A stretch of DNA of 15,684 bases from Promethearchaeia archaeon. Its GTDB lineage: Archaea > Asgardarchaeota > Lokiarchaeia > Sigyniarchaeales > SOKP01. This document shows positions 1 through 15,684 of the stretch, piece by piece. A program made the position numbers and the translations under genes. The notes beneath the pieces were generated by a model. The model worked only from the letters and a program-made list of their open reading frames with translations. It made no database searches and was not told the DNA's origin. Positions within the stretch are counted from its first letter, which is position 1, and each line of letters begins with the position of its first letter. Where the stretch lies: positions 1 to 15,684 of the forward strand of contig JAHQWH010000214.1 in the NCBI GenBank assembly GCA_029856105.1, read 5' to 3'.

Positions 1-1310
1 ACGCTATAAGCCATAAAAATTCTCTTGTGCATGTCAATGTAACCATCAATCTCGCCCCTCCCAATTAATTGAGCTAGATTTTCTTCTATACTGGATTCAG
101 TAACCCCCAATCGATTAGATAATTCTCTCAAAGGCATAGTTCTATATGCTCTTGCTAGTTCTTTTATTTTATCTTCAAGGTATTTTCGCGTCATAAATTC
201 TCTTCTTTGACTGAAAATACCTTTTACCGAACCCGATTTGATAAGGTCGTGGAGTGATTTCCTTGCGAGTTCTTCTGCGATTTTTAACTTTTTTGCAAGC
301 TTAGTTAATTCAAACAATCCACTTTCTTTAGAAAAATCTTTGATTTCTTTATAAATTCTATCAGATGTAATAATTTCGTTGCCACGATCAGCAAAAAACG
401 CGGTAACAGCATTAGTCCTCATTAAATTGACGCAAAACGATTTTGATAGTTCCTTTGGTATATCGAAAACTTTTGCAAGTTTATCTAATGAAATTCTTCC
501 CTTTTTATTTATTTCTTTAATTAAATGGTCCATTACATATTTTTGAGTGTAATAAAATTGCTTAGTTTGTGAGAAGGAGCCTTTTATCTGAAATTGACTT
601 ATTAATTTATATATAACTTTAATGGCTATTTCAGAACTCATGTCAAGCATGGTGGCTAAATCGGTTACTTTCAAAATACCTTCGTTTTGTATTTTTGAAA
701 GGATTTTTTCTCTCATCTCGTACGAAATATAATAAAACATTTGGTCCTTCTGATCGACTATGCCGTATATACGCTCTTCGTCAATGTATTGATTAATTAA
801 TTTTATCATTTGTTGAGCTGATATATTAAAAGACTCCATAATCGTAGAAAAATTAGCGATTGGCGATCTCTTTAAAAATTCTAAAAAGCAATTAGGACAA
901 ACATCTTTTCCAATTATCCTTTTTAAAGACCTACGACATAAACTTAACCGATATCCTTTTATTAAATTATACTTAGTTGCTTCTCTTGCTAGTTGTTCTT
1001 TAGTAGGAAAAAATAAGCCAGGAGATTTTAAGTAGGAGTTCCAGGCACAAGTTTCATCTGAACACTCTAAGTAATATTGCCCAGACGACAGTCTCTCTAA
1101 CTTCAAAAGCGCTTCGCACTCAGGACACTTACTATTTTCAATAACGGTACATTTATAATACTTTTCAGCAGCGCTAGCTTTTGAATAAGATATTTCATGC
1201 TTTTTACAAAGCCAACTTTCTGTTGTAGCCATATGGTGGATGCAAAAACTTGAGTTGCATTTCTCACAGGTAAAAGAAATGTTTTGACTCTCGCAGAATT
1301 TGCATTCCAT
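1..1310 (-). CDS. Zn-finger plus tandem winged-helix (PCI/UFL1-like) repeat protein, partial (3' end outside window)
   Basis: Absent from the ORF track. Manual translation from ATG at 1310 (GGAG just upstream) stays open for 436 codons to the window edge. N-terminus MECKFCESQNISFTCEKCNSSFCIHH...CKKH...CPEC...CSDETC...CPNC, then five ~60-aa repeats, e.g. YYTQKYVMDHLIKEINKKGRISLDKLAKVFDI and AYRTMPLRELSNRLGVTESSIEENLAQLIGRGEIDGYIDMHKRIF (PCI-type winged-helix pattern). Confidence 0.88.
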   Translation of the reverse strand, partial: MECKFCESQNISFTCEKCNSSFCIHHMATTESWLCKKHEISYSKASAAEKYYKCTVIENSKCPECEALLKLERLSSGQYYLECSDETCAWNSYLKSPGLFFPTKEQLAREATKYNLIKGYRLSLCRRSLKRIIGKDVCPNCFLEFLKRSPIANFSTIMESFNISAQQMIKLINQYIDEERIYGIVDQKDQMFYYISYEMREKILSKIQNEGILKVTDLATMLDMSSEIAIKVIYKLISQFQIKGSFSQTKQFYYTQKYVMDHLIKEINKKGRISLDKLAKVFDIPKELSKSFCVNLMRTNAVTAFFADRGNEIITSDRIYKEIKDFSKESGLFELTKLAKKLKIAEELARKSLHDLIKSGSVKGIFSQRREFMTRKYLEDKIKELARAYRTMPLRELSNRLGVTESSIEENLAQLIGRGEIDGYIDMHKRIFMAYS

Positions 1311-1444
1311 TATCTGATTATCTCCATAATTGTTGAAAGATATAGATTTGTTTGCAATATATATAAAAATACTGATATAAATTATTTTATGAGACCAACT
1401 ATTGTTTTTTTTGAATTATTGATAAGTTTTTAATTTTTTGAATC

Positions 1445-1459
1445 AAAAATAAAAAAAAA
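1445..1459 (-). terminator. Putative oligo-T terminator downstream of the 1518..2222 gene
   Basis: A5-T-A9 on the plus strand is a T-rich tract on the minus strand about 60 nt after the stop codon, the usual form of an archaeal terminator. The background is AT-rich. Confidence 0.35.
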
Positions 1460-1480
1460 CTAGTGGAATATATGTAATTA

Positions 1481-1526
1481 CCTATAAGCCTATAAATCCT
1501 ATAAATCCGATAAGATCTTATAAGAT
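1481..1526. repeat. Degenerate 8-10 bp tandem repeat (5 units) containing two overlapping 12-bp palindromes
   Basis: CCTATAAG/CCTATAAAT/CCTATAAAT/CCGATAAGAT/CTTATAAGAT; palindromes ATAAGATCTTAT (1510-1521) and ATCTTATAAGAT (1515-1526). Confidence 0.7.
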
Positions 1527-2222
1527 TGGAAATACAGAAACTCCTAAAAACGATAGCACCATAACCGATGTATTAAAAAGTATAATTATAAGGAGCATAA
1601 TGTAATAAATTGTGTTCTTTCTGCTTTCTTTTGGCTTAACTATAAGAGAAGTGCCTTGCTTAGCTAAAGCAAGAGGAAATAATCCCACAAAAGTGCCTAT
1701 AGAGAAATAAAATACTACCAATAACCCTTCTATGAATCCGTATCCAAGAGATAATTGAAACGCTTGAGAATATAACATTAATTCAAATATACAAGGAGCA
1801 AATCCTGCTATGATTCCAAAGACATAAGGCGTTTTCTTTAATTCCCAATCTAAACTTGGAATGTCCTTAAAATATTTAGAATGAGGTAAATAATCCCGTC
1901 TTGTAATGAAGAATAAAAAAAATATCCCCATAAACATAGATGTGAACGCTCCAAAGAAATTAATAACTATAGGGTCGGGTGTAAAACCGGGTATAATAAA
2001 TCTTGGGACTTGAGTTATAAAAACCGTAACTGACGCAATAATCATATTAGAAGTAATTAATCCCAATCCATAAAGCATTAATATATAAACGCTCTTTTTT
2101 GGAGTCTTTGCTATTCCAAACGACCAAAAAAAGAAGATGGCTTTATCTTCACATGGAATTAGCGTATGTAATATTCCTAATAAAAATGCTGGCATTAAAA
2201 TAATAAAGTATTCTTGAACCAT
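1518..2222 (-). CDS. ~6-TM membrane protein of the CcdA/DsbD_2/RcnA(NicO)-like group
   Basis: TM1 motif LLGILHTLIPCEDK (compare RcnA GxxHAxxPGHxK), TM4 motif GIIAGFAPC, TM5 motif FSIGT; about six hydrophobic segments. Confidence 0.65.
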   Translation of the reverse strand: MVQEYFIILMPAFLLGILHTLIPCEDKAIFFFWSFGIAKTPKKSVYILMLYGLGLITSNMIIASVTVFITQVPRFIIPGFTPDPIVINFFGAFTSMFMGIFFLFFITRRDYLPHSKYFKDIPSLDWELKKTPYVFGIIAGFAPCIFELMLYSQAFQLSLGYGFIEGLLVVFYFSIGTFVGLFPLALAKQGTSLIVKPKESRKNTIYYIMLLIIILFNTSVMVLSFLGVSVFPIL

Positions 2223-2312
2223 TTTTTTGTTAAAGAGTCTTTTGGATTCTTTTATTATATTTCAATATTTCATGTAAAATTTAGAATTGAAATTATTTAA
2301 GTTTTTACCTTA

Positions 2313-3593
2313 TCATTTTTCTTTATTTTCCTTATTTAAGCAATATTGGCTAATCCCTATAAAAATAAGAATTAAAAATATTGTTGAAGCGAAATTAAAT
2401 GGAAAAAACAATTTTGTTAACCAAAATATTCCCATAAAAGCCAAATCAAAGAAATTTAAAAAGAAAAAACTCGGTTTAACATACTTTCTGGTTAATTCTG
2501 AGTTTCTTGGCAAATTAAATAATATAACAACTAAAAGAGGTGTTAAATTGAGAAGATGATGATCCCATGAGTCAAAGTAAGCAAGGAACATAATTAAAAT
2601 ACCGAATGTGTATCCATAAATTAAATCATATCTATAAAATCTTCTGAATACATATAAAATAAAACTTATACTTCCTAAAATGAGGAAAACGCTTAAAAAA
2701 ATAGGTAAAACGCTTAATTCGTTAGCGGGAACCCCAATATATAAGAAGAAATTCGATATGAGTTTTGTAATACTAAAAGAATGGTTTAAAAGCACTGTTT
2801 CAGAGCCAGTGAAATTTGTTTCTATAAACCCATTTAACAAACCCGGGTAAATTAGAAACACGATAATGTTTAAAGACAAAGGCAATATAACGCCTGTTAA
2901 TCTTAGAAAGCTTTTAGTAAAATCAAGTTTTAATTTTTTATTATTATAATCGTAATTGAGCATAACTAAGAAGGGAATCATGAATATAGTTGTTGGTTTA
3001 ATTATAATACTTAATCCTAATAGGAAACTTGCGATAAATTGCCATTTGATATCCTTGCATTTAAGAAATATAAACAGAGATAATAAAATAAGTAGAGTTA
3101 TATATAAATTAATTTGACCTAATATGTAATTAAATACCTGCGGTAATCCAATAAGGTAAAGACAAATGTATAGTATTACTCTATTTTCTTCTTTCTCGTG
3201 ATCTTCTCTTCTAATCAAGAGTATTAATTTATAAAGAATTATAGAGATTAAAATGTTTAAGATTAAATTGATTAAATTAAAAACAATAAATCCTAATTCA
3301 AAACCCATTAAATAAAAAGGAACAAAAATTAGAGCAGAAAGCGGGAAATACCTAAAAGGCCAAATATCAACATAATTTGCAGGGTTATAAAGGTTAGCAG
3401 GGTCGTTAACAAAAATCTCTCCAACTCTATAATATACATAGAAATCACTTTGCGTTCTAAATACCAACAACGTCATAAGTATTGAAAATATAAAATAAAA
3501 CACATGAAGAAATATACTATATCTGAAGAATTTAAATTTCCATAGTTCTACAGAGCGATTCTTAACTTGAGTAAAACGTGCTTTAAAATCCAT
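2313..3593 (-). CDS. GT87/DUF2029-family (GT-C fold) lipid-phosphate-sugar-dependent glycosyltransferase
   Basis: Polytopic; SDFYVYY after TM1 (catalytic Asp position), PFRYFP, LGQIN, IIKP and DSWDHHL match the PimE/DUF2029-type motif order. Confidence 0.82.
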   Translation of the reverse strand: MDFKARFTQVKNRSVELWKFKFFRYSIFLHVFYFIFSILMTLLVFRTQSDFYVYYRVGEIFVNDPANLYNPANYVDIWPFRYFPLSALIFVPFYLMGFELGFIVFNLINLILNILISIILYKLILLIRREDHEKEENRVILYICLYLIGLPQVFNYILGQINLYITLLILLSLFIFLKCKDIKWQFIASFLLGLSIIIKPTTIFMIPFLVMLNYDYNNKKLKLDFTKSFLRLTGVILPLSLNIIVFLIYPGLLNGFIETNFTGSETVLLNHSFSITKLISNFFLYIGVPANELSVLPIFLSVFLILGSISFILYVFRRFYRYDLIYGYTFGILIMFLAYFDSWDHHLLNLTPLLVVILFNLPRNSELTRKYVKPSFFFLNFFDLAFMGIFWLTKLFFPFNFASTIFLILIFIGISQYCLNKENKEK

Positions 3594-3621
3594 GTCAATT
3601 TTAATAAATAGTTATAAAAGG

Positions 3622-4353
3622 TTATATATTTCGTTTTCTCTTTACATATAAATATATAACAATCAAAAATGCACTTATTAAACTTATTGTGGCAGGTAAT
3701 ACATATAGTGGGATTTCATCAAGCGAAATATCAATGACGACTACATTACCGGTTTTATATAATTTAAAAGAGCTTAAAATCCCTTTAAGGTTATAGACTG
3801 CGATTATATAAACATTTTCAGTGGGAATATTTGGTTGGATATAATCTTTTTCAACTTGAACATTTAAAGTTGGCAAAACACGATTATCAACATCGTACAA
3901 ATTACCCAGTTTCATTTCCCCTAAATAATCGCCAATAGGAACGGGTAACCAAAAAGGTACAAAAGGCAAATAAGTTGAAAAATTAAAATTGGGCGGGTAT
4001 AGGTTTGGATTTTTTAAATATGAAGCTTCTGTTATATTATCAAGAGTTCCCCAACTCTCATCGTATTTCCACATCCATATGTTAAATGATGTTAATATTG
4101 TTGTTGAATTTTCTTCGATCGTATTAACATCCCATCTCATCCTTTTTCCTTGGCTTAGGTTTTCAAACAATCCCGCGTCTCTCCAACTTTCCCCAAAAAG
4201 CACGTTCATTTCGTTAATATTACATATATTGCATTTCCAAATTAATTGATCGCCTGTTCTAAAACCAAAACTATAATCTAAAGCATTTACGTTTGATGTG
4301 AAACTCCCCATAAAAATTAAAATAAGAGCGATACTTGTTCTTCTAACCTTCAT
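3622..4353 (-). CDS. Secreted/surface protein with N-terminal signal peptide and C-terminal membrane anchor
   Basis: Preferred start is ATG 4353 (GAGGT 8 nt upstream) rather than 4371. MKVRRTSIALILIFMGSFTSNVNA-L signal peptide, CNIC motif, N-X-S/T sequons NLS, NST, NIT, NFS, C-terminal hydrophobic helix followed by KRKRNI. Overlaps the upstream GT stop by 11 bp. Confidence 0.8.
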   Translation of the reverse strand: MKVRRTSIALILIFMGSFTSNVNALDYSFGFRTGDQLIWKCNICNINEMNVLFGESWRDAGLFENLSQGKRMRWDVNTIEENSTTILTSFNIWMWKYDESWGTLDNITEASYLKNPNLYPPNFNFSTYLPFVPFWLPVPIGDYLGEMKLGNLYDVDNRVLPTLNVQVEKDYIQPNIPTENVYIIAVYNLKGILSSFKLYKTGNVVVIDISLDEIPLYVLPATISLISAFLIVIYLYVKRKRNI

Positions 4354-5626
4354 GGGTGCCAACCTCAACATTGTTTGATTTTTTAACTAAACAGTATTTT
4401 ATAACTCCTAAAAGTGTTAAGATTAGAAAAAATGTCCCAACAAAATTATACGGAAATAGAGGATATGTCAAATACCAAATTCCAACAAACAAGATATCAA
4501 AAAAATTGAAGAAGAATAGACTAGGTTTTATGTAATTCAACAACTCAGTCTGTCTCGGAAGATTAAAGATAATAATTATCAAAAGAGGCGTCAAGTTCAA
4601 GAGATGGTGGTCCCAAGAATCAAAATACGTAAGAAGCATAATTAAAATTCCAAATGTATAACCATATAAGATAGAATTTTGTTTTCTCCTTATTAAAACG
4701 AAAATAATAAATCCGGTGCCCCCAACAATTCCAACTGAGACAAGAAGTATCGTTAATTGATTAAAGGGAATATTATAAAGAAAACAGAAGTTAGTAATGA
4801 GTTTTGTTAAACTGTAAGAAAAATTTAAAGCAATAGGATTGCTTCCGGTAAAGTTGGTTGCTAAAAAGTCCTCCCATAATTTAGGAAAAGCAGCAAATAA
4901 GATGAAATTAGCCAAAACAGGTAATATTACACCAAAAATTCTTATAAAACTTTTTAAAAAGTCGATTTTAAGCTTTCTTTTTTCTAAATCAAAATGTAAT
5001 ATTAACAAGAAAGGGATAAGGAAGATCGAAGTTGGTTTAATTATAATACTAATACCTAAGATAAAGCTCCCAATAAACTGCCAAACATTGCTTTTATAAG
5101 TAAGAAAAATTAACAAGGAAATTAAAATAAACAAAGTGATAAACAAATTAATCTGCCCGTAGATGTAGTTTAAAACGTGAGGCACTCCCATTAAATATAT
5201 ACTGATATAGAGTATTATTCTTTTATCGTTTCGTTCGTGATCTTTTCCGCGAACTATTTTTATTATCTTATATAAAAGCATGATAATTAGAAAATTCAAA
5301 AATAAATTTAGGGTATTAAACAGCACAAACGCTAATCTAAAATCTATAAGTGAAAAAGGAACAAAGAATAGTGCTGATAAAGGAAAGTATCGAAAATCCC
5401 AAAGATAATACGCTTGATTATAGAGATTGTTAATATCATTGAGGAAAATCTTGCCTGATTCGTAAAATATTAAAAAATCGTTTTTTTCGGAAAGAACCGT
5501 AAAAAACAAGATTATTGATAAAAAATAATAAAATAAATGAAGTAAAACAGCGATTCGGAATATTTTCTCTTCCCAGAATCTACTAAACTTTCTTTTTACA
5601 CTAATTAGTAAATCAACAAAAATCAT
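4343..5626 (-). CDS. GT87/DUF2029-family glycosyltransferase, paralog of 2313..3593
   Basis: NDFLIFY, DFRYFPLSAL, YGQIN, IIKP, YFDSWDHHLLNLTPLL; collinear with the other copy and almost the same length (427 vs 426 aa). Confidence 0.82.
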   Translation of the reverse strand: MIFVDLLISVKRKFSRFWEEKIFRIAVLLHLFYYFLSIILFFTVLSEKNDFLIFYESGKIFLNDINNLYNQAYYLWDFRYFPLSALFFVPFSLIDFRLAFVLFNTLNLFLNFLIIMLLYKIIKIVRGKDHERNDKRIILYISIYLMGVPHVLNYIYGQINLFITLFILISLLIFLTYKSNVWQFIGSFILGISIIIKPTSIFLIPFLLILHFDLEKRKLKIDFLKSFIRIFGVILPVLANFILFAAFPKLWEDFLATNFTGSNPIALNFSYSLTKLITNFCFLYNIPFNQLTILLVSVGIVGGTGFIIFVLIRRKQNSILYGYTFGILIMLLTYFDSWDHHLLNLTPLLIIIIFNLPRQTELLNYIKPSLFFFNFFDILFVGIWYLTYPLFPYNFVGTFFLILTLLGVIKYCLVKKSNNVEVGTHEG

Positions 5627-5793
5627 CGGTCAAGAATAGAAAACAATTTAATCTTCAATTTTTAGAATAATTCAATAAAAATTAAATTATTTTTCAAATT
5701 AAATCAAAAAAGAATTATTTTTTATATAAATAAGGTTTTTGATTAACTTAATACAGTTTATAAAAAATAAAAATTCAATAGGTTAAGGAAAAA
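5627..5793. promoter_or_regulatory. Divergent promoter region (GT cluster / dehalogenase)
   Basis: Very AT-rich gap between divergent genes, with a TATA-like TTTATATAAA near 5721-5730 that reads the same on both strands. Exact elements cannot be fixed. Confidence 0.4.
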
Positions 5794-6687
5794 GTGAAAC
5801 TATTAAACACACCCAAAGAGAGGTTTGATAACCTCCCCGACTTTCCATTTGAATCACATTTTATTGAAGTAGATGGAATCAGAATCCACTATTTAGACGA
5901 GGGACCTAAACAAGTAGACATCATTTTATTAATGCATGGTGAACCATCATGGAGTTTTTTATATAGACATATGATTCCTATTCTGGTGAAAGCAGGATTT
6001 AGAATTTTAGCGCCAGATTTAGTAGGATTTGGCCGTTCAGACAAACCAACTGAACAAAACGACCACACATACCTTAAACATGTAGAATGGATGACAAAAT
6101 GGCTACAACTACTCGATCTTCGAAATATTACCTTATTTTGTCAAGATTGGGGATCTTTAATAGGTTTAAGACTTGCTATTGAAAATCAGGATCGATTTAA
6201 TAGAATTGTTTTATCAAATGGGGGGTTACCAACCGGTGAACAAAGGATGTCTGATGCTTTTACTAATTGGCGGGAGTTTTCTAGAAATTCACCTTCTTTT
6301 GACGTCAAATTTATTTTACAGGGTGCAACCACCACTAAATTATCTAAAGACATCTTAAACGGCTATGATGCGCCTTTTCCTGACGATTCTTTTAAAGCTG
6401 GCGCCCGGATCCTACCATCTTTAGTTCCAATCAGTACCGATGATCCAGAACACGAAGCTAATAAAAAAGCGATCGAACTTTTTAAAAAATGGAAAAAACC
6501 CTTTTTAACAGCATTTTCTGATAAGGATCCAATTACACGAGGAGGAGATAGGTTTTGGCAAGCACTCGTTCCTGGAGCTGCGGGGCAAAATCACATAATA
6601 ATTAAAAACGCAGGCCATTTTGTCCAAGAAGATAAAGGTCCTGAACTGGCAGAAGTTATTGTAGAATTTATCAAAAACAACCCATAA
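5794..6687 (+). CDS. dhmA: Haloalkane dehalogenase, HLD-I (DhmA/DhlA-like) alpha/beta hydrolase
   Basis: HGEPSWS oxyanion motif, PDLVGFGRSDKP, nucleophile CQDWG, second halide-binding Trp in FTNWREF, YDAPFP, acid Asp in FSDKDPI, catalytic His in AGHFVQE. GTG start. Confidence 0.92.
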   Translation: MKLLNTPKERFDNLPDFPFESHFIEVDGIRIHYLDEGPKQVDIILLMHGEPSWSFLYRHMIPILVKAGFRILAPDLVGFGRSDKPTEQNDHTYLKHVEWMTKWLQLLDLRNITLFCQDWGSLIGLRLAIENQDRFNRIVLSNGGLPTGEQRMSDAFTNWREFSRNSPSFDVKFILQGATTTKLSKDILNGYDAPFPDDSFKAGARILPSLVPISTDDPEHEANKKAIELFKKWKKPFLTAFSDKDPITRGGDRFWQALVPGAAGQNHIIIKNAGHFVQEDKGPELAEVIVEFIKNNP

Positions 6688-6700
6688 AATAGTTTTAAAA

Positions 6701-8128
6701 ATGTCAATAATGAAAACAAGAAATAAAAATTTAGCATTTGGAATAATTGTTGGTAATAGAGATGTTTTCCCGGACCATCTTGCTAAAGAAGGACGATTAG
6801 AAATTATAAGTGTGTTGAAAGAATTAGGGTTTGGTTATGTTATTCTAAGCGAGAGCGATACAAAAGATGGCGTAGTAGAATCTTATTCCGACGCAAAAAA
6901 ATGTGCTAAACTTTTTAATGAAAATAAAGAAAAAATTGCAGGTATAATTGTAGTTTTACCAAATTTTGGAGATGAAAAAGGCATTGTCAACACTTTGAAA
7001 CTATCTGATTTAAATGTTCCAATCCTTATTCAAGCTTCATCTGATGAAATAGACAAAATGAATCGAAAATTCAGACGAGATGCATTCTGCGGAAAACTAT
7101 CTGTTTGCAGCGTTCTGTATCAGCACGGAATTCCATTTACGCTAACCGAAACGCATACATGTCCTATTAACTCTGATGGATTTAAAGCAGACATAATAAA
7201 ATTTGAAGGAGTCTGTAAAATTGTAAAGAAACTTAAAAACGCAAGATTTGGGCAAATAGGTGTAAGACCTAACGCTTTTGAAACTGTGAGATATAGCGAG
7301 AAAATTTTACAATTACATGGGATTACGATAGAACCAATTGATTTATCAGAAATTTTTGGAGAAATTAGTAGATTACCAGATGGCGATCCTAAAGTAAAGG
7401 AAAAAATTCAAGTAATTAAGGATTATACACCAACTACAACATTTCCAGAAGACGGCATATTAAAATTAGCAAAATTAGCAGTTGTTGTCGAGAATTGGGT
7501 ATTGGAAAACGAATTGGATGGTTTTGCTTTTCAATGTTGGCCAAGCATTCAAGATAATTTCGGGATTGTTCCCTGTGCAGTTATGAGCATGTTTAGCGAA
7601 GGTTTAATACCCGCAGCTTGTGAAGTAGATATTGCGGGTTTAATTGGTATGTATATTTTGCAAGTTGCAACCGAAACGCCTTCGGCAATTTTGGATTGGA
7701 ACAATAATTATGGCGACGATCCTAATAAAATGGTTCTTTTTCACTGCAGTAATCTTCCAAAATCATTCTTTAAAGACACTAAGATGACAATCCACCCCAT
7801 TATTTCAGATCTAAAAGGCGATGACCATAGTTTTGGAGCTATTCAAGGAAGAATTAAAAGTAAACCGTGTACATTATTAAGGATTGAAACTGACGATGTT
7901 TTCGGAGAGATTAAAGCCCTTTTAGTAGAAGGAAATTATACAGACGATATTTTAGAAACTTTTGGAGGTTATGGAGTGATAGAGATACCTAATTTACAAG
8001 CTGTTTTAAAGACATTATGTAAAGAAGGTTTTGCTCACCACGTAGCCGCCTCATTAAATGAAGTAGGTGATATTGTATTTGAAGCTCTTTCTAACTATCT
8101 TGAATGGAATATAATTTATCCAAAGTAA
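6701..8128 (+). CDS. L-fucose/L-arabinose isomerase family protein
   Basis: NFGDE, RRDAFCGKLS, FQCWP, metal-binding ACEVD, LFHCSN and GFAHHVA motifs of the FucI/AraA-related family. Substrate cannot be determined. Confidence 0.85.
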   Translation: MSIMKTRNKNLAFGIIVGNRDVFPDHLAKEGRLEIISVLKELGFGYVILSESDTKDGVVESYSDAKKCAKLFNENKEKIAGIIVVLPNFGDEKGIVNTLKLSDLNVPILIQASSDEIDKMNRKFRRDAFCGKLSVCSVLYQHGIPFTLTETHTCPINSDGFKADIIKFEGVCKIVKKLKNARFGQIGVRPNAFETVRYSEKILQLHGITIEPIDLSEIFGEISRLPDGDPKVKEKIQVIKDYTPTTTFPEDGILKLAKLAVVVENWVLENELDGFAFQCWPSIQDNFGIVPCAVMSMFSEGLIPAACEVDIAGLIGMYILQVATETPSAILDWNNNYGDDPNKMVLFHCSNLPKSFFKDTKMTIHPIISDLKGDDHSFGAIQGRIKSKPCTLLRIETDDVFGEIKALLVEGNYTDDILETFGGYGVIEIPNLQAVLKTLCKEGFAHHVAASLNEVGDIVFEALSNYLEWNIIYPK

Positions 8129-8145
8129 AGATATGCAAAACTCTA

Positions 8146-8155
8146 TTTTTTTTTT
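8146..8155 (+). terminator. Putative oligo-T terminator
   Basis: T10 run starting 18 nt after the isomerase stop codon. Confidence 0.55.
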
Positions 8156-8294
8156 AATGATTTGAATTTCTATCATTTCTGCAGTTTTGACAAAGTCTAT
8201 AGATATTCTTATATAGAAGTTTATCTAAATAAATTTTATAAAATTAATCCAATTTCAAACAAATAAAATCATATTATTAAAGGATTTGATATTA

Positions 8295-8936
8295 ATGAAC
8301 GAAAATCTGAATGCACAAAAAAAATGTCCCGCATGTGGCAAAGAAAATAATTTAGAGTCCAAATTTTGCAAATTTTGCGGAGCTAATATGGATACATTTG
8401 ATTTTCAAACCTTTGAAATATCTCAGACTATGAGATTTAGAAAAAACTGTTTTTCAATTTGCTGTATAATTTTTATTGTTTTAATATTTTACTTATCTTT
8501 AGTGGTATTTCCAAATAATATGGACCCTTTAATGGCATTGGTTGCGTCAGCTCTTTTTATAGTACTCCTTGGAGGATCTAGTTTCATTAGTTTGTTATAC
8601 ATTTTATGGTTGTATCGTGATTCGGGTGTTCGTAGGATTTTTTCCATTTCACCTAAAAGCATTAAAATAGTGCTTCCAAAAGAACTGGTTTTTGAAGTTA
8701 ATTGGTCCGAATTCGATTTAATTCAATTACATAAATATAGTGGCTCTCACAATAATAAATCATATAGATTTTACTTCATTTCAAATGATGAAGTATATAA
8801 AGAGGTTCTTATTGAAGGATCATTGCATTTTAGTGGGGCAAAATGTAGAGCAATTGTATCTCAAATGAAAAAATACGCAGCAAAAATGAATAAACAATTT
8901 ATTAGGGGCAAAAGAAGAAAAAAGAAGAAAAAGTAA
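8295..8936 (+). CDS. Zinc-ribbon-containing 2-TM membrane protein
   Basis: CPACGKEN...FCKFCG zinc ribbon, two hydrophobic helices, a beta-rich C-terminal domain (ISPKSIKI...EVNWSEF, bacterial-PH-like pattern) and a KRRKKKKK terminus. ATG 8295 preferred over TTG 8286. Confidence 0.75.
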   Translation: MNENLNAQKKCPACGKENNLESKFCKFCGANMDTFDFQTFEISQTMRFRKNCFSICCIIFIVLIFYLSLVVFPNNMDPLMALVASALFIVLLGGSSFISLLYILWLYRDSGVRRIFSISPKSIKIVLPKELVFEVNWSEFDLIQLHKYSGSHNNKSYRFYFISNDEVYKEVLIEGSLHFSGAKCRAIVSQMKKYAAKMNKQFIRGKRRKKKKK

Positions 8937-8992
8937 GTGTTTGTCGTTAGGGTAAATTTTATTTAAAATTGGGTGACGAATTATTTTAAAAA

Positions 8993-10072
8993 CTATTTTC
9001 TTTTTATTTTCAAATCTTTTTCAAAAAAGCCAGATGATATTAAATTCTTTTTTTGTTCATCAAAATGAGTATAAATTTCAATAGGCTCAATTTTTTTTAC
9101 TTGGTCAATTATATTTTTTCTATAATTAAGTAATCTCTTGCGAGTTAGATAAATTGAGTATTCGGATATGTCGCTTCCGATCCATCTTCTATTTAATTTA
9201 TCGGCAACTAGTAAAGTTGTTCCAGAACCACAGAAAAAGTCGGCTACTAGATCCCCTTCATTGCTTCCAATTTTAATTATTCGTTCGAGCAAATCGTGGT
9301 GCTTTTGCGTAGGAAACCCTGTCCACTCCTTTGAAGCAGGTTGCATGCATGGTATTTTCCACACATCGTCCATCTTTTTATCTTTTACAACCCTATAAAT
9401 AACATGCCCCTTCTCGTCTTTAGCATTTTTTAAAACACCATCAACCATTACTCTTTTTAACTGCTTTATTGGTTTTCTTCGGAGGACTCTGAGCTCATTG
9501 AAAGTATAATTAGCAGATTTAGAATAAACTAGAATATCGTCGTGAGCTCTCGGCAAATTCTTCTTCCCAGCTGAATATTTATTGTAGTAATACCAAACTA
9601 TACTGTTGACAAATCGGTTTGCTCCGAAAATTTCTTCTAACAACACTCGAACGTAATGACTTGCGTGCCAATCTAAGTGGATAAATAACAACCCGTTTAT
9701 TGACAACAATTCCCTAAATAAAACAATTCTATCACGAAGCATTTGTAAGTAAGAATCTATATCTTTGTCCCAATGATCAAAATACGCAATTGAATCGTAA
9801 TGATTCCCATTTTCTTCGATTTTGATTCTGTAATTCGTTCCTGAGAAAAAGGGAGGATCAACGTAAATTAAATCGATCTTTCCAGAGAAATTATTCGTTA
9901 AATAATGAAGCACATTGAGGTTTTCCCCCCAAAACAACATGTTTTTCCAATTACTACCTCGAAAATCTCCAATTCCCAAGTCCACGGTTTCAAAATAGTT
10001 GAGATATCTTTTTTTTAAATCCTTAACATTTTCAGAAATATTTGACTTATTTTCCCAAGTTAGTTTAACCAT
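8993..10072 (-). CDS. Site-specific DNA methyltransferase (N6-A/N4-C, beta class, Mod-like), solitary
   Basis: KIDLIYVDPPF (motif IV) precedes FPTQK and DFFCGSGTT (motif I), the beta-class order. N-terminal KLTWENK resembles Mod-like enzymes. Confidence 0.92.
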   Translation of the reverse strand: MVKLTWENKSNISENVKDLKKRYLNYFETVDLGIGDFRGSNWKNMLFWGENLNVLHYLTNNFSGKIDLIYVDPPFFSGTNYRIKIEENGNHYDSIAYFDHWDKDIDSYLQMLRDRIVLFRELLSINGLLFIHLDWHASHYVRVLLEEIFGANRFVNSIVWYYYNKYSAGKKNLPRAHDDILVYSKSANYTFNELRVLRRKPIKQLKRVMVDGVLKNAKDEKGHVIYRVVKDKKMDDVWKIPCMQPASKEWTGFPTQKHHDLLERIIKIGSNEGDLVADFFCGSGTTLLVADKLNRRWIGSDISEYSIYLTRKRLLNYRKNIIDQVKKIEPIEIYTHFDEQKKNLISSGFFEKDLKIKRK

Positions 10073-10102
10073 TATCTAATCATTTGACTATTAACTTTAT
10101 CT

Positions 10103-11386
10103 TCAGAAGATTGATAGATTGGATGTAATTATTGTTAAAAAGGTCATCGTGACTAACAGAAATATAGTTATAATAATGTAAAAGACGAGATGAATGACAT
10201 ATACTTTTTTATTTTTATCTTCTTTCAATGCTTGAGTTGAATAGAAGATCTTATTTATTATCGCAGCCGATAAACCGATGGTTATCATCAATAGAGCATT
10301 CCCTTCGTTAATTAAGGATTTATAAAATGCTGTTGCTACAAACAGAGAGGACGCACCGCCGGAAAGAAAACCGATCACAAACACAATAATGTAATAAACA
10401 AGAATATTTATTTCAAAAAAACTTAAAACGATCGATATTATTAAACCAATTAAATAAGTTCCCGAAAAGATTAAAGCGCCTTTAATTGAGAGAGGGTTTT
10501 TGATTTTATCTAAAGTTAATTGAGTTTCTTTTTTTCTTAATATTAAAAATGACCCGATTAACCCAATAAAAGATGTGATTAGAATTGGGAACAAGGCATA
10601 AAATAGTAAAGTAGGAGTAATCATTAAAACGATTATCATTCTAATTAACATAGTCTGAATTACGAGCCAAACAGCTGAGGATGATGCGCCAGCTTCCGCT
10701 AATTCAACGGTTGTAGCTTCACTATGAGCAAAGCCTCCTAAAAAAGAAATATAGTATAGATTTTTCTCACTTGTGCTCTTTAGTATAAAGTAGCTAAAAT
10801 ATTTTACAGCTAAAATTATAATGAAAACTAAAACTATTGGTTTAACATTAATTTCAAAAACCAGAAAATCGTCTGGAATTAAAATGTAAAGCAGAACTAC
10901 GATTGCTATAAATTCAACTGTTCCTGTCCATTCGATATCTTTTAATTTCCTTATTTTATAAAATTGCTTTTTCGTGGAAAGGATAATCAGAAATATTACG
11001 GAAATGGCAATGGCAAGGGTCTCATTGTAATAACATGTCGTTCCAACGACCATCGCTAATATCATTGATAGTGTAGTAGTATAACCCGGATCGTTTTCGC
11101 GAAACAATCTATAAACGCTTCCAATCAATAGAAAAACTATCATTCCTCCAAAAAACATAACAATTAACGTAAAACCCTCTGATACGGGGAGAAATTTGTC
11201 GTGTAATATAATTAAAGATGTAGAAATCATAGAAAAAAAGATGTGATCTCGGGCACCATATTGAGCGCTGACTCTTGTGCGTTCGATCCCAATAACAAAA
11301 CCACAGAAAAAGGATACGATAATTTTTAAAAATAAGATGTAAAATTCTTCTGCTGATATCGTTTGTAATAAGACTAAGTAAACCAT
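10103..11386 (-). CDS. MgtC/SapB N-terminal domain plus DUF4010 membrane protein
   Basis: GFVIGIER...GARDH (MgtC-like), PGYTT, LGGFAHSEATT, NPLSIKGALIF and GFLSG follow the MgtC-DUF4010 pattern; AGGAG upstream of the ATG. Confidence 0.85.
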   Translation of the reverse strand: MVYLVLLQTISAEEFYILFLKIIVSFFCGFVIGIERTRVSAQYGARDHIFFSMISTSLIILHDKFLPVSEGFTLIVMFFGGMIVFLLIGSVYRLFRENDPGYTTTLSMILAMVVGTTCYYNETLAIAISVIFLIILSTKKQFYKIRKLKDIEWTGTVEFIAIVVLLYILIPDDFLVFEINVKPIVLVFIIILAVKYFSYFILKSTSEKNLYYISFLGGFAHSEATTVELAEAGASSSAVWLVIQTMLIRMIIVLMITPTLLFYALFPILITSFIGLIGSFLILRKKETQLTLDKIKNPLSIKGALIFSGTYLIGLIISIVLSFFEINILVYYIIVFVIGFLSGGASSLFVATAFYKSLINEGNALLMITIGLSAAIINKIFYSTQALKEDKNKKVYVIHLVFYIIITIFLLVTMTFLTIITSNLSIF

Positions 11387-11496
11387 TTTTTATTATATCT
11401 CCTAGAGAATTGATGAAGTAATTGCGACTGTTTTAACATATGAAATTACATAGAGATTATTTACCAGAGAAATTATAAAATAAAAGAGATTAGTTT

Positions 11497-12258
11497 TTAT
11501 TCCTGATGTTTATCAATGATATCTTCTAACTCTTTATCGGAAAGGAAACCTTTGTGAGCCATAACTTCTTTAATTCCTTCAATAACTTGGGGCGCACCTT
11601 TTGATTCTTCAATATAATCCTCTAAAGATTTTATTTTGAGCTCAATCGCTTCAAGTTCTTTGTTTTTTGCGTCGAGATCATTTTTAGCTTCTATTATTTG
11701 ATTTTCCTTGCTGTTAATCTGGTCTGTCAATTCGTTTTTCAAACTTTCAATCTCAATATATTTATCTGAAATTGTTTGTTGTAGATCTTTTTTAACGCCC
11801 TCGATTTCTCTTTCTTTTTGTTCGTAGTCTTCCTTTAGATTCCCGACTTGTGGTTCTAATTCCTCTAATTTCTTCGTGGTAATTTCTAATTTGTTTTCAA
11901 ATTCTCTTATTTTTTCGTTACCAGCTTCTAATTTTTGTTCTAAGTTAGATTTGTTTGATTTCAAATTCTCAATTTCTGCTTCAATATTGATTTTTTCTTC
12001 TTTTACAGTGTCTATTTCGCTCATAGTAGTAGATAATTCTTGAGTTTTTTCAGTTAAACTTTTTTCTTTTTCTGATAATTTCTCCTTGTTATCATTTAGT
12101 TCCTTAGATAGCTTCTCTATTTTTTGTTCCCGTTGTTTTAGTTTCTGTTCTAAATCATCAATTTTTGACCTAAGATCTAATAAAAAACGCCCCTCTACGG
12201 CTTGCTTTTTATCCGGTTTCTCAGTTGCTTTAGACCAATCTATCGAAATACTTCTCAC
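11497..12258 (-). CDS. Coiled-coil protein A (head-rod-tail)
   Basis: About 190 aa of E/K-rich coiled-coil between head IDWSKA...VEGRFLLDLR and tail APQVIEGIKEVMAHKGFLSDKEL. No ATPase motifs. Confidence 0.85.
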   Translation of the reverse strand: MRSISIDWSKATEKPDKKQAVEGRFLLDLRSKIDDLEQKLKQREQKIEKLSKELNDNKEKLSEKEKSLTEKTQELSTTMSEIDTVKEEKINIEAEIENLKSNKSNLEQKLEAGNEKIREFENKLEITTKKLEELEPQVGNLKEDYEQKEREIEGVKKDLQQTISDKYIEIESLKNELTDQINSKENQIIEAKNDLDAKNKELEAIELKIKSLEDYIEESKGAPQVIEGIKEVMAHKGFLSDKELEDIIDKHQE

Positions 12259-12404
12259 ACCATTATTTATTTTTTTTATTGTATTATTTTATATTAATAT
12301 TTTTATACTACAAGATATTTAATCTTTTCAAGTTAATATTTTAATCGTAAGAAACAACTTTAAAAATAGATATCAAGATAAAAAATTTATAAAATATCAG
12401 TATA

Positions 12405-13067
12405 TTACTCAAATTCTTTAAATATCAGATCGAGCTCCTTATCAGTAAGAAAGCCTTTGTGCATCATTACCTCTCTTATTCGCTCCAAAATTATAGGTGA
12501 TGCTTTAACTTCTGAAAGCTGAGTTTCGAGCGATTTTATTTTTTCAATCAATTCCTCTGTTTCTTCTCGATTCTCCTTAACTTTTATGTTTAGGATATCA
12601 ATTTCGTTTTTTCTTTTTTCCATATCGGTTTTATTGTTTTCTATCTCTTTATCTTTGAACTTTAATTTTTGTTCCATTTCAGCTGCTTTTTCTGTCGAAA
12701 ACCTCAACTCACTTTCTAATCTTTCAATATTTTCGTTTGTTGTTAACACTTCTTCTTTAAGTTCTTCAAGTTTTGGCTTTAATCGCGTTAATTCTATATC
12801 AACATTTAATTTATCCTCAGAAACACCATCTAAATTCTTTTTAGCTGATGAAAACTTTTCACTAATTTTAACAAGGCTTTTTTCTCTACCAATTAATTTA
12901 TTTTGAGTTTCTTTTAAATTCTCTTTTGAATTTCTTAGATCTTCTTTGTACTTAACTAAATCTCTTTCTAATTCATTGATTTTAGCGCGTAAATCTAATA
13001 AGATTCTACCCTCTACCTTCTGACTTTTCTGTGGTGCTAATTCAGCACGCTCCCAATCTATGTTAAC
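12405..13067 (-). CDS. Coiled-coil protein B, paralog of A; start uncertain (frame open to 13082)
   Basis: The ORF-track call 12405..12749 is truncated. The same frame continues upstream without a stop as AEVNIDWERAELAPQKSQKVEGRILLDLRAKINELE..., matching the head of A; the tail SPIILERIREVMMHKGFLTDKEL matches the tail of A. No in-frame ATG/GTG/TTG upstream of 12749; in-frame TAA at 13083-13085. Confidence 0.8.
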   Translation of the reverse strand, partial: VNIDWERAELAPQKSQKVEGRILLDLRAKINELERDLVKYKEDLRNSKENLKETQNKLIGREKSLVKISEKFSSAKKNLDGVSEDKLNVDIELTRLKPKLEELKEEVLTTNENIERLESELRFSTEKAAEMEQKLKFKDKEIENNKTDMEKRKNEIDILNIKVKENREETEELIEKIKSLETQLSEVKASPIILERIREVMMHKGFLTDKELDLIFKEFE

Positions 13068-13322
13068 TTCCGCCCACCTTATTTATATTAAAATTTAAAA
13101 TGTAACTTTTTTTAAGTTTACTTATTCTATTCGGATCTCAAGTTTTTATTAAGATTTTTTCTTAATTATTACGACCTTATATATTGTAACTCTCTTTTTC
13201 TTTTATAAAACTTTACTATAAATATAAATTATTTATAAAGGCAATTTATTTTATCAGTTGTTACTACGATCTATTTGAATGAATTAGGTCTAGAAGTTAT
13301 TACTTAAGTTTACTTGTGAGTA

Positions 13323-14126
13323 TTGATGGTAAAAATTAACATTGGCTGTGCTGGTTGGGATTATAAGGACTGGGTGGCCTCTTTTTATCCTAAATCGCTT
13401 GAGAAATATAACCGCTTGAAATTTTATTCAGGATTTTTCGATTTAATCGAAATAAATACAACTTTTTACAATGTCCCTAAATATTCGATAGTAAAGAAGT
13501 GGAACATTCGAGTACCAGAAAAATTTAAGTATGTAATAAAAGTATGGCAGAAAATTACTCACGATTTAAAAGTTCCAAATCTTGCTTCTTTAATTTCTCA
13601 ATTTTTTTATCAATTATCACCGATACAAGAAAAAACCGTTGCTTATTTATTACAATTTCCACCTTGGTTTAAATTTACGGAAAAACACCTCAAACAACTA
13701 AATTTTTTAACCAACGAGCTTCCTTCGGGAAATAGGTATATCTTTGAATTTCGCGATAATTCGTGGTTTAAAAAAGAAATAATTTCAGAGTTTATAGCCG
13801 GTACTAAATTTATCTTAGGAACAACATACAAACCAGGGTTAAAAGCCTACTATTTACCTAACCAGGATAGATACTATATTCGGCTCATAGGTGACCGCGA
13901 ATTAACGGTGTTTAGCCACATTCAGAGAAACCAAGAGGAAAAATTAAGCGATCTTATTAAAAATGTTAATAATCTTGAGAAATCGCCTGATGTTCGCGAA
14001 ATCTTCATAATAGTCAATAATCATTTTATGGGATTTGCCCCTGAATCCGTGAACTTGTTGAAAAAGAGTTTTAATTTACCTTTTAATCAATTTAATCAAC
14101 AAAAAAGATTATCAGATTACTTTTAA
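13323..14126 (+). CDS. DUF72 (YecE-like) family protein
   Basis: IGCAGWDYKDW, IEINTTFY, LLQFPP, FEFRDNSW, YIRLIG, NNHFMGFAP. The start may be ATG 13326. Confidence 0.9.
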   Translation: MMVKINIGCAGWDYKDWVASFYPKSLEKYNRLKFYSGFFDLIEINTTFYNVPKYSIVKKWNIRVPEKFKYVIKVWQKITHDLKVPNLASLISQFFYQLSPIQEKTVAYLLQFPPWFKFTEKHLKQLNFLTNELPSGNRYIFEFRDNSWFKKEIISEFIAGTKFILGTTYKPGLKAYYLPNQDRYYIRLIGDRELTVFSHIQRNQEEKLSDLIKNVNNLEKSPDVREIFIIVNNHFMGFAPESVNLLKKSFNLPFNQFNQQKRLSDYF

Positions 14127-14214
14127 AGTGTAAGTAAGGAAATTTAAAATAAAAAAAAAAGATTAAACCAATAGTATTAAAAAATTTTAAATAATCAAAG
14201 TCTATTTTTAATTT

Positions 14215-15525
14215 ATGGATACGATTGAAAACCTAAAGAAATTAGGATTAAAAGAAAACAAGAAATATTTGATTCTGGTAATTTGGCTTCTTGTGAATAT
14301 TACAATTATCCAACTACCTTTTCAATTTTCAATTCAAATTCTTGGTAATCAAATAGATTTATTTGATTTAATAGGAATAGTAATTTACTTACCATTTTTG
14401 ACGTTCTTAGTGTTTATATTTTTGTATTCACTATTTGCTAAGAAAGACGTGAAGGAAGTTGCCGCATGGAAAATATTTTTAGCATTATTCTTAAGTCTTC
14501 CTTTAATGTTTTTTTTGATACCAATTATGGTGGGAATCTTCTTATTTTCAATATTATCTTACATTTTCTTTACGTCGTGGTTTATCTTATACGGTGCTTA
14601 TCTTACAAGTAAAAGATTAGACGATAGTTTTAAAAGACGCGTACATAGCTCATTTTACAGAAGCATTGAATTCGTTGGCGGTACTATATTTTCCTTACTT
14701 TTGTTGGCTCTATATTTATCTGAATCACAAGGTATTGGAGCTCTTATTGGTTTCACATTTACTCAAACCGTTTATGACACTTTAAATTTAGTAATAATTG
14801 TTGTTGGGCTTATAATTGTAGCGTTTATCTTAGTTGGGATTATATACATATTTAAAAAAATATTTAACGCTTGGCTAGGGATGTTTTCGCTTTCTGTTGT
14901 TATATATACTTTTTTTCTACTTGTAAAAATCTTTTTTGCGATTAAAAGCATAGGTGGAGAAAGTACATCAATAGCAACTCAATTTATTTTGTTATTTCTG
15001 GATTTATTCATAATATTATATGCAATTAGCACCTTAATGGGTTCTCAAGCCGAACTTTTAAGTAAAAGACTAAAATTTAAGCGAATTGGCGTTGATTCAA
15101 TATTAATTTGGTTAGTGTTTTCAAAAGTAGCATACGAGTTTATTCACAACTATCCATATAACTTATTTAGTGGTTTCGGTTTTGCTACTACAATTAACGT
15201 ATTAAACGATTCAATTGTAAACCTGGTTAAAAATTGGGGCGTTTTACTGTTCTTTCTTCTTTTACTAATAAGTTTAGGATTTGTTGAAATTAAGAAATAC
15301 ATCCTAAACGAAAGAGAGTTCAAAGAAAAAGTAGATAAAGAGATTAAAGATCTTTTAAGTCCTATCGATTTTATAGAAAAATTGAAAGAACCTTTGACTA
15401 CTCCAGAACCGGAAAACGAACAAGACTATGAGGATTTAGATTCAATTGAAGAAGAAACTGATCCTTTTCCAAAAGAAATTTCAGAGCAAAAAGTACCGGA
15501 TGACCAAGATTTTGACGCTTTTTAA
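14215..15525 (+). CDS. Polytopic membrane protein (~10-11 TM) with acidic C-terminal tail, unknown function
   Basis: Hydrophobic over the first ~360 aa, then a charged helix and a D/E/P-rich tail. No family recognised. Confidence 0.8.
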   Translation: MDTIENLKKLGLKENKKYLILVIWLLVNITIIQLPFQFSIQILGNQIDLFDLIGIVIYLPFLTFLVFIFLYSLFAKKDVKEVAAWKIFLALFLSLPLMFFLIPIMVGIFLFSILSYIFFTSWFILYGAYLTSKRLDDSFKRRVHSSFYRSIEFVGGTIFSLLLLALYLSESQGIGALIGFTFTQTVYDTLNLVIIVVGLIIVAFILVGIIYIFKKIFNAWLGMFSLSVVIYTFFLLVKIFFAIKSIGGESTSIATQFILLFLDLFIILYAISTLMGSQAELLSKRLKFKRIGVDSILIWLVFSKVAYEFIHNYPYNLFSGFGFATTINVLNDSIVNLVKNWGVLLFFLLLLISLGFVEIKKYILNEREFKEKVDKEIKDLLSPIDFIEKLKEPLTTPEPENEQDYEDLDSIEEETDPFPKEISEQKVPDDQDFDAF

Positions 15526-15541
15526 AATTAATTAAAAATTA

Positions 15542-15555
15542 TTTTTCTCTTTTTT
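15542..15555 (+). terminator. Putative oligo-T terminator
   Basis: TTTTTCTCTTTTTT starting 17 nt after the stop codon. Confidence 0.4.
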
Positions 15556-15684
15556 CATATTCAAATTTGTATTGTTATAAATTACAAAAGCAAGAGAGAT
15601 TAATCCCTTAATAACTAATTTTATTAAACACTAAATTAAAACTTATAATACATAATATTTGGGTGGCTTCTTAAATGAGCGATT

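Follow-up and report, generated by a model that had tools for sequence, protein, structure and literature searches.

We analyzed two adjacent minus-strand genes, here called A and B, on a 15,684-nucleotide stretch of DNA (contig JAHQWH010000214.1, positions 1 to 15,684, referred to below as the window) from a 3.66-Mb, 92% complete Asgard metagenome-assembled genome (Promethearchaeia archaeon, assembly GCA_029856105.1; G000 in our genome set). Each protein combines an N-terminal head with a long uninterrupted coiled coil, the two marks of what we call the IDW-head coiled-coil rod family (defined by our head profile, A2), and our searches indicate that A and B belong to an undescribed coiled-coil rod family restricted to a single Asgard class. 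On balance, though with no great assurance, we read both proteins as dimeric rod-shaped linkers or spacers with a modular head-rod-tail plan. The two genes have the following features:

11497..12249, minus strand: gene A (A-clade rod protein), 250 amino acids (aa) with the likely ATT start at 12249-12247, giving (M)SIDW
12258, minus strand: in-frame GTG, alternative start of gene A, giving 253 aa (11497..12258 in the list of open reading frames)
11497-11499, minus strand: stop codon TAA of gene A
12258..12261, minus strand: GGTG Shine-Dalgarno-like motif of gene A, 8 nucleotides (nt) before ATT 12249 and overlapping the alternative GTG
12139..12249, minus strand: head of A, 37 aa (head profile 79.1 bits, E-value 1.2e-21)
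11500..11607, minus strand: tail of A, a putative SHOCT-like two-helix module (..APQVIEGIKEVMAHKGFLSDKELEDII..; tail profile 71.4 bits)
12405..13067, minus strand: gene B (B-clade rod protein), 220 aa when read from GTT 13067-13065 at the conserved start position
12405-12407, minus strand: stop codon TAA of gene B
13075..13078, minus strand: Shine-Dalgarno-like GGTG of gene B, 7 nt ahead of GTT 13067
12957..13067, minus strand: head of B, 37 aa (head profile 73.5 bits, E-value 6.5e-20)
12408..12512, minus strand: tail of B, a putative SHOCT-like two-helix module (tail profile 63.9 bits)
12259..12404, minus strand: A+T-rich spacer from B to A, 146 nt, with a T6 run just past the stop codon of B

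The head has a sharply bounded distribution. Our head profile (A2, 37 positions) matched 158 of 160 other genomes from families f1-f7, which form one class (Lokiarchaeia-type), and none of 239 genomes from other classes of the phylum. Among 1.84 billion representative proteins we found the head in 165 clusters, always at residues 1-40, with the consensus M-x-I-D-W ... P.K ... VEGR.LLDLR.KI..LE; in A it comprises a short N-terminal helix, a proline-containing loop and the first heptads (LLDLR.KI..LE). The NCBI organism names of homologs include Promethearchaeota archaeon and Thorarchaeota archaeon. Across the family, genomes carry one to six copies of the head, and the proteins end in different ways: of 69 head matches (170-999 aa), 19 had the tail type seen in A and B, 18 had a zinc (Zn) ribbon, and 32 were of other types or truncated. 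In all, the head is joined to C-termini of at least four further kinds, and several end types recur. In the complete genomes of family f3, which evidently holds the cultured Lokiarchaea (G135, 4.4 Mb; G138, 6,035,313 bp; G143), a head-rod-Zn protein is the only head bearer.

The tail is younger and more restricted. A tail profile (A3) matched 121 of 134 f1 genomes and none of 26 in f2-f7, and the head is present in 25 of the 26 genomes of these tail-less families. Because the head is found class-wide and the tail in f1 only, the head is both older than the tail and independent of it.

A and B are paralogs. The original prediction, made from the window's letters alone, had described a tandem pair with shared head and tail motifs and collinear N-termini, lacking transmembrane segments and an ATPase domain, and all of this holds. 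BLASTP of the two (253 aa against 225 codons) gave 35% identity with an E-value of 3e-35, gapless over the first ~140 residues; the motifs read as described, and profiles made from relatives scored far above chance for heads and tails alike. In Kyte-Doolittle plots the maximal 19-residue mean was 0.27 for A and 0.45 for B, with no hydrophobic segment in either. Both proteins are acidic (isoelectric points 4.9 and 5.4), with 44-45% charged residues, and neither contains a cysteine pair. Scans of A and B against Pfam and NCBIfam gave sub-threshold coiled-coil matches only and no enzyme domain, and sequence searches of Pfam, NCBIfam and PDB with the full proteins, the head or the tail returned generic coiled-coil noise or nothing. 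PF24161, recorded on one homolog, is CCDC39, a generic coiled coil, and was set aside. For the head, conjectured likenesses to a DivIVA-like domain at the N-terminus, to the WH2/thymosin-like motif KK.KV and to the N-terminal Trp motifs of golgins were dropped. Separately, PF27695 and PF27870 are Pfam accessions recorded on the fragmentary homologs P0003-P0007; should they be new DUF models derived from the rod family, it may already have a Pfam entry. Four family proteins looked up by exact match were absent from the cluster collection.

The pairing had escaped annotation, as the original prediction recognized, since gene B is miscalled. Its frame holds 225 open codons and lacks ATG, GTG and TTG in the first 111; because no such codon precedes codon 112, standard callers truncate the gene, starting at GTG 12749 to give a 114-aa call (12405..12749). 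The same prediction had extended B to 13082. The frame is indeed open to that point, but 13082 is merely the first codon past an upstream TAA stop. In both genes the likely start is instead the second codon upstream of IDW (B, GTT 13067; A, ATT 12249). At this M-x-I-D-W position the tail-type loci that we fetched had ATT in 10 cases, TTG in five, ATG in three, GTT in two and ATA in one, and two more B genes instead had a TTG a few codons further up. If a tail-type gene has a GGTG motif, the motif lies 7-10 nt ahead of the M-x-I-D-W position, and the spacing seen in gene A recurs in its orthologs; in one of these (G249) GTA replaces the alternative GTG while ATT is kept at the equivalent position. 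A B ortholog that is 87% identical (G241) also has GTT at the start position, and other B orthologs have TTG, ATT or ATA there. ATA 13061 is an alternative start for B.

Near-cognate starts of this kind appear to be used widely in the source genome. We defined a start signature as GGTG[AG] followed after 7 or 8 nt by the codon in question, with a stop no more than 12 codons upstream, at least 120 open codons downstream and no canonical start nearby. Genome-wide, the signature was found at ATG 27 times, TTG 13, ATA 9, ATT 8, GTG 4, ATC 3 and CTG 2, and at none of 595 AAA, 483 TTT or 359 TAT codons. Near-cognate codons passed in 24 of 1505 cases and other sense codons in 4 of 9262 (Fisher p 3e-17), and the strict signature picked out 24 near-cognate against 44 canonical sites. 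GTT 13067 is the only GTT site that passed. Individual genes agree: the familiar N-terminus of ribosomal protein uS4, (I)GDPRRLKKK, begins at an ATC codon, and a small GTPase begins at ATA. Sites with near-cognate codons (ATA, ATT, ATC, CTG and possibly ACG) in this genome include C7:10806(-), C225:18832(-) and C194:96621(+). Because many of its members start at ATT, ATA or GTT, the rod family is systematically mis-annotated, and other proteins of the source genome with near-cognate starts are expected to be truncated by standard gene callers as well.

Structure predictions and heptad registers agree on the rods. The AlphaFold 2 (AF2) monomer of A is one helix from residue 15 to 236 followed by a helix at 241-252, with a predicted local distance difference test score (pLDDT) of 89; that of B has a short helix at 5-10, then helices 18-204 and 209-219 (pLDDT 86). 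A heptad register scan likewise places a long coiled coil directly after the head in both proteins, and rod lengths come to ~33 nm for A and ~26 nm for B. The two registers are equal over the first ~140 residues. Beyond that point the register of A shifts, and B keeps one register from the head to about residue 205, with no linkers or stutter.

The length of B is also fixed in evolution. All 10 genomic B orthologs are 220-221 aa long and align without gaps at 45-87% identity, and the distance from LLD in the head to KGF in the tail is 181 residues in each of the 10 scored; of the three relatives taken from databases, two are N-terminally cut and the third carries an insertion of 7 aa. A orthologs span 229-250 aa, with LLD-to-KGF distances of 188-210 and indels. 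The original prediction was right that the rods diverge between A and B, yet within each set of orthologs the rod is well conserved (66% and 61% mean column identity) and has an invariant block particular to the paralog: KL.GREKSL..E.FSSAKKNLD...KL..DIE in B, and VKKDLQQTISDKYIEIESLKN in A. The rods thus look like more than variable spacers, and B looks, on the predicted model, like a fixed-length strut of ~26 nm. In one genome of genus g12 (L016, G226:C23, ~1508-2307), the match between an A-type gene and A falls into two parts (residues 4-156 and 196-250), and the open frame of this gene has no tail; this may be a frameshift or a disrupted copy.

The tail resembles SHOCT, a short C-terminal module. 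It forms a helix-turn-helix with a conserved glycine and an [ST]xxE[FY] pattern, and AF2 predicts two helices joined by a GFL[ST] turn. We aligned its profile with hhalign to a reference of 18 bona fide SHOCT domains of Asgard archaea (17 exceeding the Pfam cut-off, one marginally under it at 26.4 bits) and obtained a probability of 91.3% (P 9.5e-7) over 30 columns. Reversed SHOCT, 30 column-shuffled versions, the head and five rod segments served as controls and gave at most 7.3%. By Pfam threshold the tail is not a member, and we describe it as a putative divergent SHOCT-like two-helix module. Such domains are predicted to anchor proteins at the inner leaflet of the membrane (PMC11237479). 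In genus g11, a single in-frame TAA interrupts several tail-profile matches in genomes G169, G172 and G174, which may reflect pseudogenes, errors of assembly or another cause.

The tandem arrangement is old. The original prediction had proposed profiling the head across taxa and looking for adjacent pairs; the result was the class-wide head described above and, in no fewer than 32 of the 42 genomes of the window's genus, two head matches on the same strand separated by 790-950 nt. Genus g12 shows this arrangement too. B lies upstream of A, and the shorter frame was upstream in all but one of the plus-strand pairs checked. In a maximum-likelihood tree all tail-type proteins fall in one clade (100/98), sister to Zn-type proteins of f1, and within it the B clade (97/92) and the A clade (92/92) each hold both genera, so the A/B duplication predates the split of the two genera. 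Tandem copies in genus g2 stem from a separate duplication (100/99). At one g2 locus (G149:C2:150971-153066) three head-bearing genes stand in tandem, at least two of them with KGFITDKE tails, and that KGFITDKE-tailed pair arose independently of the A/B split.

The surroundings of the pair are largely shared between the two genera. The order runs from a fucose-isomerase-like gene through a DNA methylase gene, an MgtC/DUF4010 gene, A and B to a divergently oriented DUF72 gene and a gene for a 436-aa membrane protein, and is kept, save that g12 has lost MgtC from its place between the methylase gene and A. In the window, these neighbors are a stand-alone N6/N4 DNA methylase (8993-10072, minus strand), an MgtC/DUF4010 membrane protein (10103-11386, minus strand), a DUF72 protein (13323-14126, plus strand) and the 436-aa multi-pass membrane protein (14215-15525, plus strand), which has an acidic C-terminal tail and no Pfam match. 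No restriction enzyme was recognized among the window's open reading frames from 5794 onward scanned against Pfam.

Taken together, these data lead us to prefer the reading of A and B as dimeric rod-shaped linkers, each with three parts: the conserved 37-aa head, a near-unbroken coiled coil and an exchangeable C-terminal module. In this proposal the head would dock on a partner conserved across the class, the rod would set a distance, fixed in B, and the tail together with the paralog-specific rod patches would bind second targets. The partner system would probably be the Lokiactin cytoskeleton, the membrane or both, with a possible membrane connection through the SHOCT-like tail and a possible actin connection through the family's Zn-tailed relative. 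Lokiarchaeia have an actin-based cytoskeleton and long protrusions, and to our knowledge few of their structural proteins are known beyond actin, its regulators and tubulins.

The suggested actin connection comes from the third head-bearing gene of the source genome (contig C136; L003:1507-2430), which encodes a 307-aa protein with a C-terminal Zn ribbon. This ribbon corresponds to the 'Zn domain' that is reported to end both Loki2DGel and 'unrelated multi-domain proteins' and to have a Tyr loop that is conserved (Akil et al, PMC9433394). A search of the source genome with it returned nine copies; in all seven for which the frame was extracted it is C-terminal, and in one of these proteins it comes after two gelsolin repeats (Pfam, 84 bits). 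The match of the ribbon to the zinc finger of reverse gyrase is weak and non-significant (E-value 0.016). Next to the third paralog lies a gene for a ~290-aa membrane protein (L003:445-1320, minus strand) with a weak left-handed-beta-helix signal. Homologs of this membrane protein also flank the Zn-type gene, in differing orientations, in G149, G143 and G135, and it may be a functional partner of the Zn-tailed paralog.

Published data from Lokiarchaeum ossiferum probably include a member of the family. The head-rod-Zn gene of G138 (C1:5841083-5842297; L020, L068) encodes a protein of 404 aa, for which we calculate 44.66 kDa, and the L. ossiferum protein GNAMCCOK_04980 is listed at 44.64 kDa with 84.7% coverage (Supplementary Table 2, 10.1101/2025.11.30.690169; PMC13716822). 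Locus tags follow genome position (actin at 3,924,777 is 03343; the 2DGels at 4,784,000 and 3,040,124 are 04136 and 02589), so the tag expected for the head-rod-Zn gene is ~4,980-5,110. On mass and approximate gene order, GNAMCCOK_04980 is probably this gene. The protein was enriched in the Lokiactin co-immunoprecipitation (log2 ratio 2.10, adjusted p 0.0012), and in the proteome it averages 22.60 on a log2 scale, above the 21.69 of actin (GNAMCCOK_03343; 10.1101/2025.11.30.690169; PMC13716822). It is among the ~30 most abundant proteins of the proteome table and is undiscussed in the text of that paper (PMC13716822). None of its neighbors is in the co-immunoprecipitation sheet, and a 78.66-kDa marker (tag 05045) was not found at 5.89-5.95 Mb. 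When we searched for homologs with the L. ossiferum-type head-rod-Zn protein, the protein itself was not among the matches.

Several points weigh against the reading of A and B as rod linkers. Neither head nor tail has a known partner, and the head has no match in Pfam or PDB. The tail stays below the Pfam SHOCT cut-off of 27 bits (best E-value 0.011, in three of 18 tails), PF09851 misses the tails in genome searches, and the binding of SHOCT-like domains to membranes is a prediction too. The connection to actin comes from a different paralog in a different family, the identity of GNAMCCOK_04980 is judged from mass and gene order only, and Akil et al observed no binding of the Zn domain to F-actin (PMC9433394). 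Finally, long retention of the tandem is equally compatible with a hetero-complex of A and B.

The strongest of the alternatives, which we nevertheless consider unlikely, is that A and B are independent, partly redundant homodimers with their own partners and that the tandem is merely inherited. It overlaps with the linker reading, cooperation between A and B being the single point of difference. In its favor, both paralogs have invariant rod blocks and length regimes of their own, copy number is variable at one to six per genome, and A and B lie on different contigs in some genomes (G233, G271). The spacer, ~135-230 nt in orthologous pairs by gene coordinates, contains a T-run in the window; A and B are probably transcribed separately, with the spacer serving as putative promoter and terminator. 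However, order and orientation are kept in the window's genus and in a second one despite the loss of MgtC in g12, and retention of the pair in rearranged surroundings hints at selection for linkage.

Also unlikely is the model of the original prediction, in which A and B form a heterodimer or copolymer that polymerizes through head-tail contacts into an intermediate-filament-like or tropomyosin-like filament. In its favor, the ends are conserved, the registers of A and B coincide over the first ~140 residues, the tandem is older than the two-genus split and a third genus has duplicated in tandem independently, the probable relative GNAMCCOK_04980 is as abundant as a structural protein, and Pfam returns Filament, Tropomyosin and Crescentin rods. 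These matches are all sub-threshold: A scores 30.7 bits against a cut-off of 40 for intermediate filaments (PF00038) and 16.7 against 100 for crescentin (PF19220), Tropomyosin (PF00261) reaches 17.2 against 38.6, and neither PF00038 nor PF19220 is among the Pfam matches of B at E-values up to 0.01. The distribution of the head speaks against head-tail assembly. It is kept where no tail exists, so tail binding cannot explain its conservation, and it is fused to Zn-domain and other C-termini. A match of the ends to a known non-polymerizing family was among the outcomes that the original prediction had counted against itself, and the tail matches SHOCT, for which initial experiments reportedly gave no support for oligomerization (PMC3581485). 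The rods of A and B in the window's genus differ by 7-29 residues, and not by a constant amount; these differences and the register shift in A argue against an in-register heterodimer with both ends aligned. A complex prediction of A with B (alignments A5, A4), which we count on neither side, scored 0.22 against a mark of 0.32. Tropomyosin lengths are quantized in actin-binding periods of ~39-40 aa. Family lengths lack such quantization: B is 220-221 aa and A-type proteins 229-250 aa, counted from the start codon, and Zn-type proteins are 251-402 aa, counted from IDW.

A role of A and B in association with the chromosome or nucleic acids, with the SHOCT-like tail binding DNA or RNA, seems to us very improbable. 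JGI names of homologs ('chromosome segregation ATPase'), sub-threshold NCBIfam matches to SMC and Rad50 coiled coils and the DNA methylase gene downstream in the conserved synteny point that way, and nucleic acid binding is one hypothesis raised for SHOCT (PMC3581485). Against this, the proteins consist of 220-250 aa of helix only, with no ABC-type ATPase head, hinge, zinc hook or DNA-binding domain, and are acidic; the SMC and Rad50 scores of 30-50 bits face cut-offs of 567-1087 and are typical coiled-coil noise; and the synteny is confined to close relatives and differs in genus g2. Least credible is that B is a decaying pseudogene without a start codon and A alone is functional: GTT is not a recognized start codon and canonical ones are missing from the first half of the frame, but the frame is intact and of constant length in all 10 genomic orthologs with its invariant blocks, GGTG stands 7 nt ahead of a conserved start at which orthologs have TTG, ATT, ATA or, in G241, GTT, and near-cognate starts are widespread in the source genome.

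With A and B read as modular linkers, the pair illustrates how the family diversifies, with the head kept, the rod length locked in one copy and the tail swapped. The family is near-universal in its class and absent from the rest of the phylum, is probably very abundant, and was probably recovered with Lokiactin in the one cultured species with proteome data. If its members are plain adaptors, the result is a modest one. That A, B and the Zn-tailed paralog are components of a Lokiarchaeia-specific cortical skeleton is a further step that we regard as doubtful. Were it true, a structural role at the actin cortex would make the family of high interest, and cortical struts or filaments would bear on the rise of cytoskeletal complexity before eukaryotes.

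The family can be compared with four known systems. The bacterial scaffolds DivIVA and GpsB pair a small, conserved N-terminal docking domain with a coiled coil, and their paralogs differ at the C-terminus and recruit different partners. They belong to a different domain of life, and the membrane-binding loops of DivIVA have no evident counterpart in A and B. Tropomyosin and intermediate-filament-like proteins (intermediate filaments, crescentin, FilP/Scy) share with A and B long parallel-type heptad rods, conserved ends, paralog pairs and, for the family, a possible association with actin. A and B differ from them in lacking Pfam membership, in a head older than the tail, in unquantized lengths and in the absence of linkers or stutter in B.

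SHOCT proteins (PF09851; Eberhardt et al, 2013, PMC3581485; SHOCT-like domains, PMC11237479) resemble A and B in a C-terminal two-helix module with a Gly turn and [ST]-x-x-E-[FLY], appended to otherwise unrelated proteins. The tail of A and B differs in its sub-threshold score, in a 2-residue shift in helix 1 and in a first helix that, in the predicted models, is apparently continuous with the long coiled coil. From the Loki Zn-domain proteins (Akil et al, 2022, PMC9433394; PDB 7WHG; Loki2DGel / MKD1-2DGel), A and B differ in that the SHOCT-like tail replaces the Zn domain, with neither (CxxC)2 nor a gelsolin repeat, and head and rod are absent from the description of those proteins in PMC9433394. 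The two groups nevertheless occur in the same organisms, and the Zn-tailed members of the family (C136; G135, G138, G143) carry, like the Loki Zn-domain proteins, a CxxC...Y...CxxC domain, placed behind the head and rod that they share with A and B.

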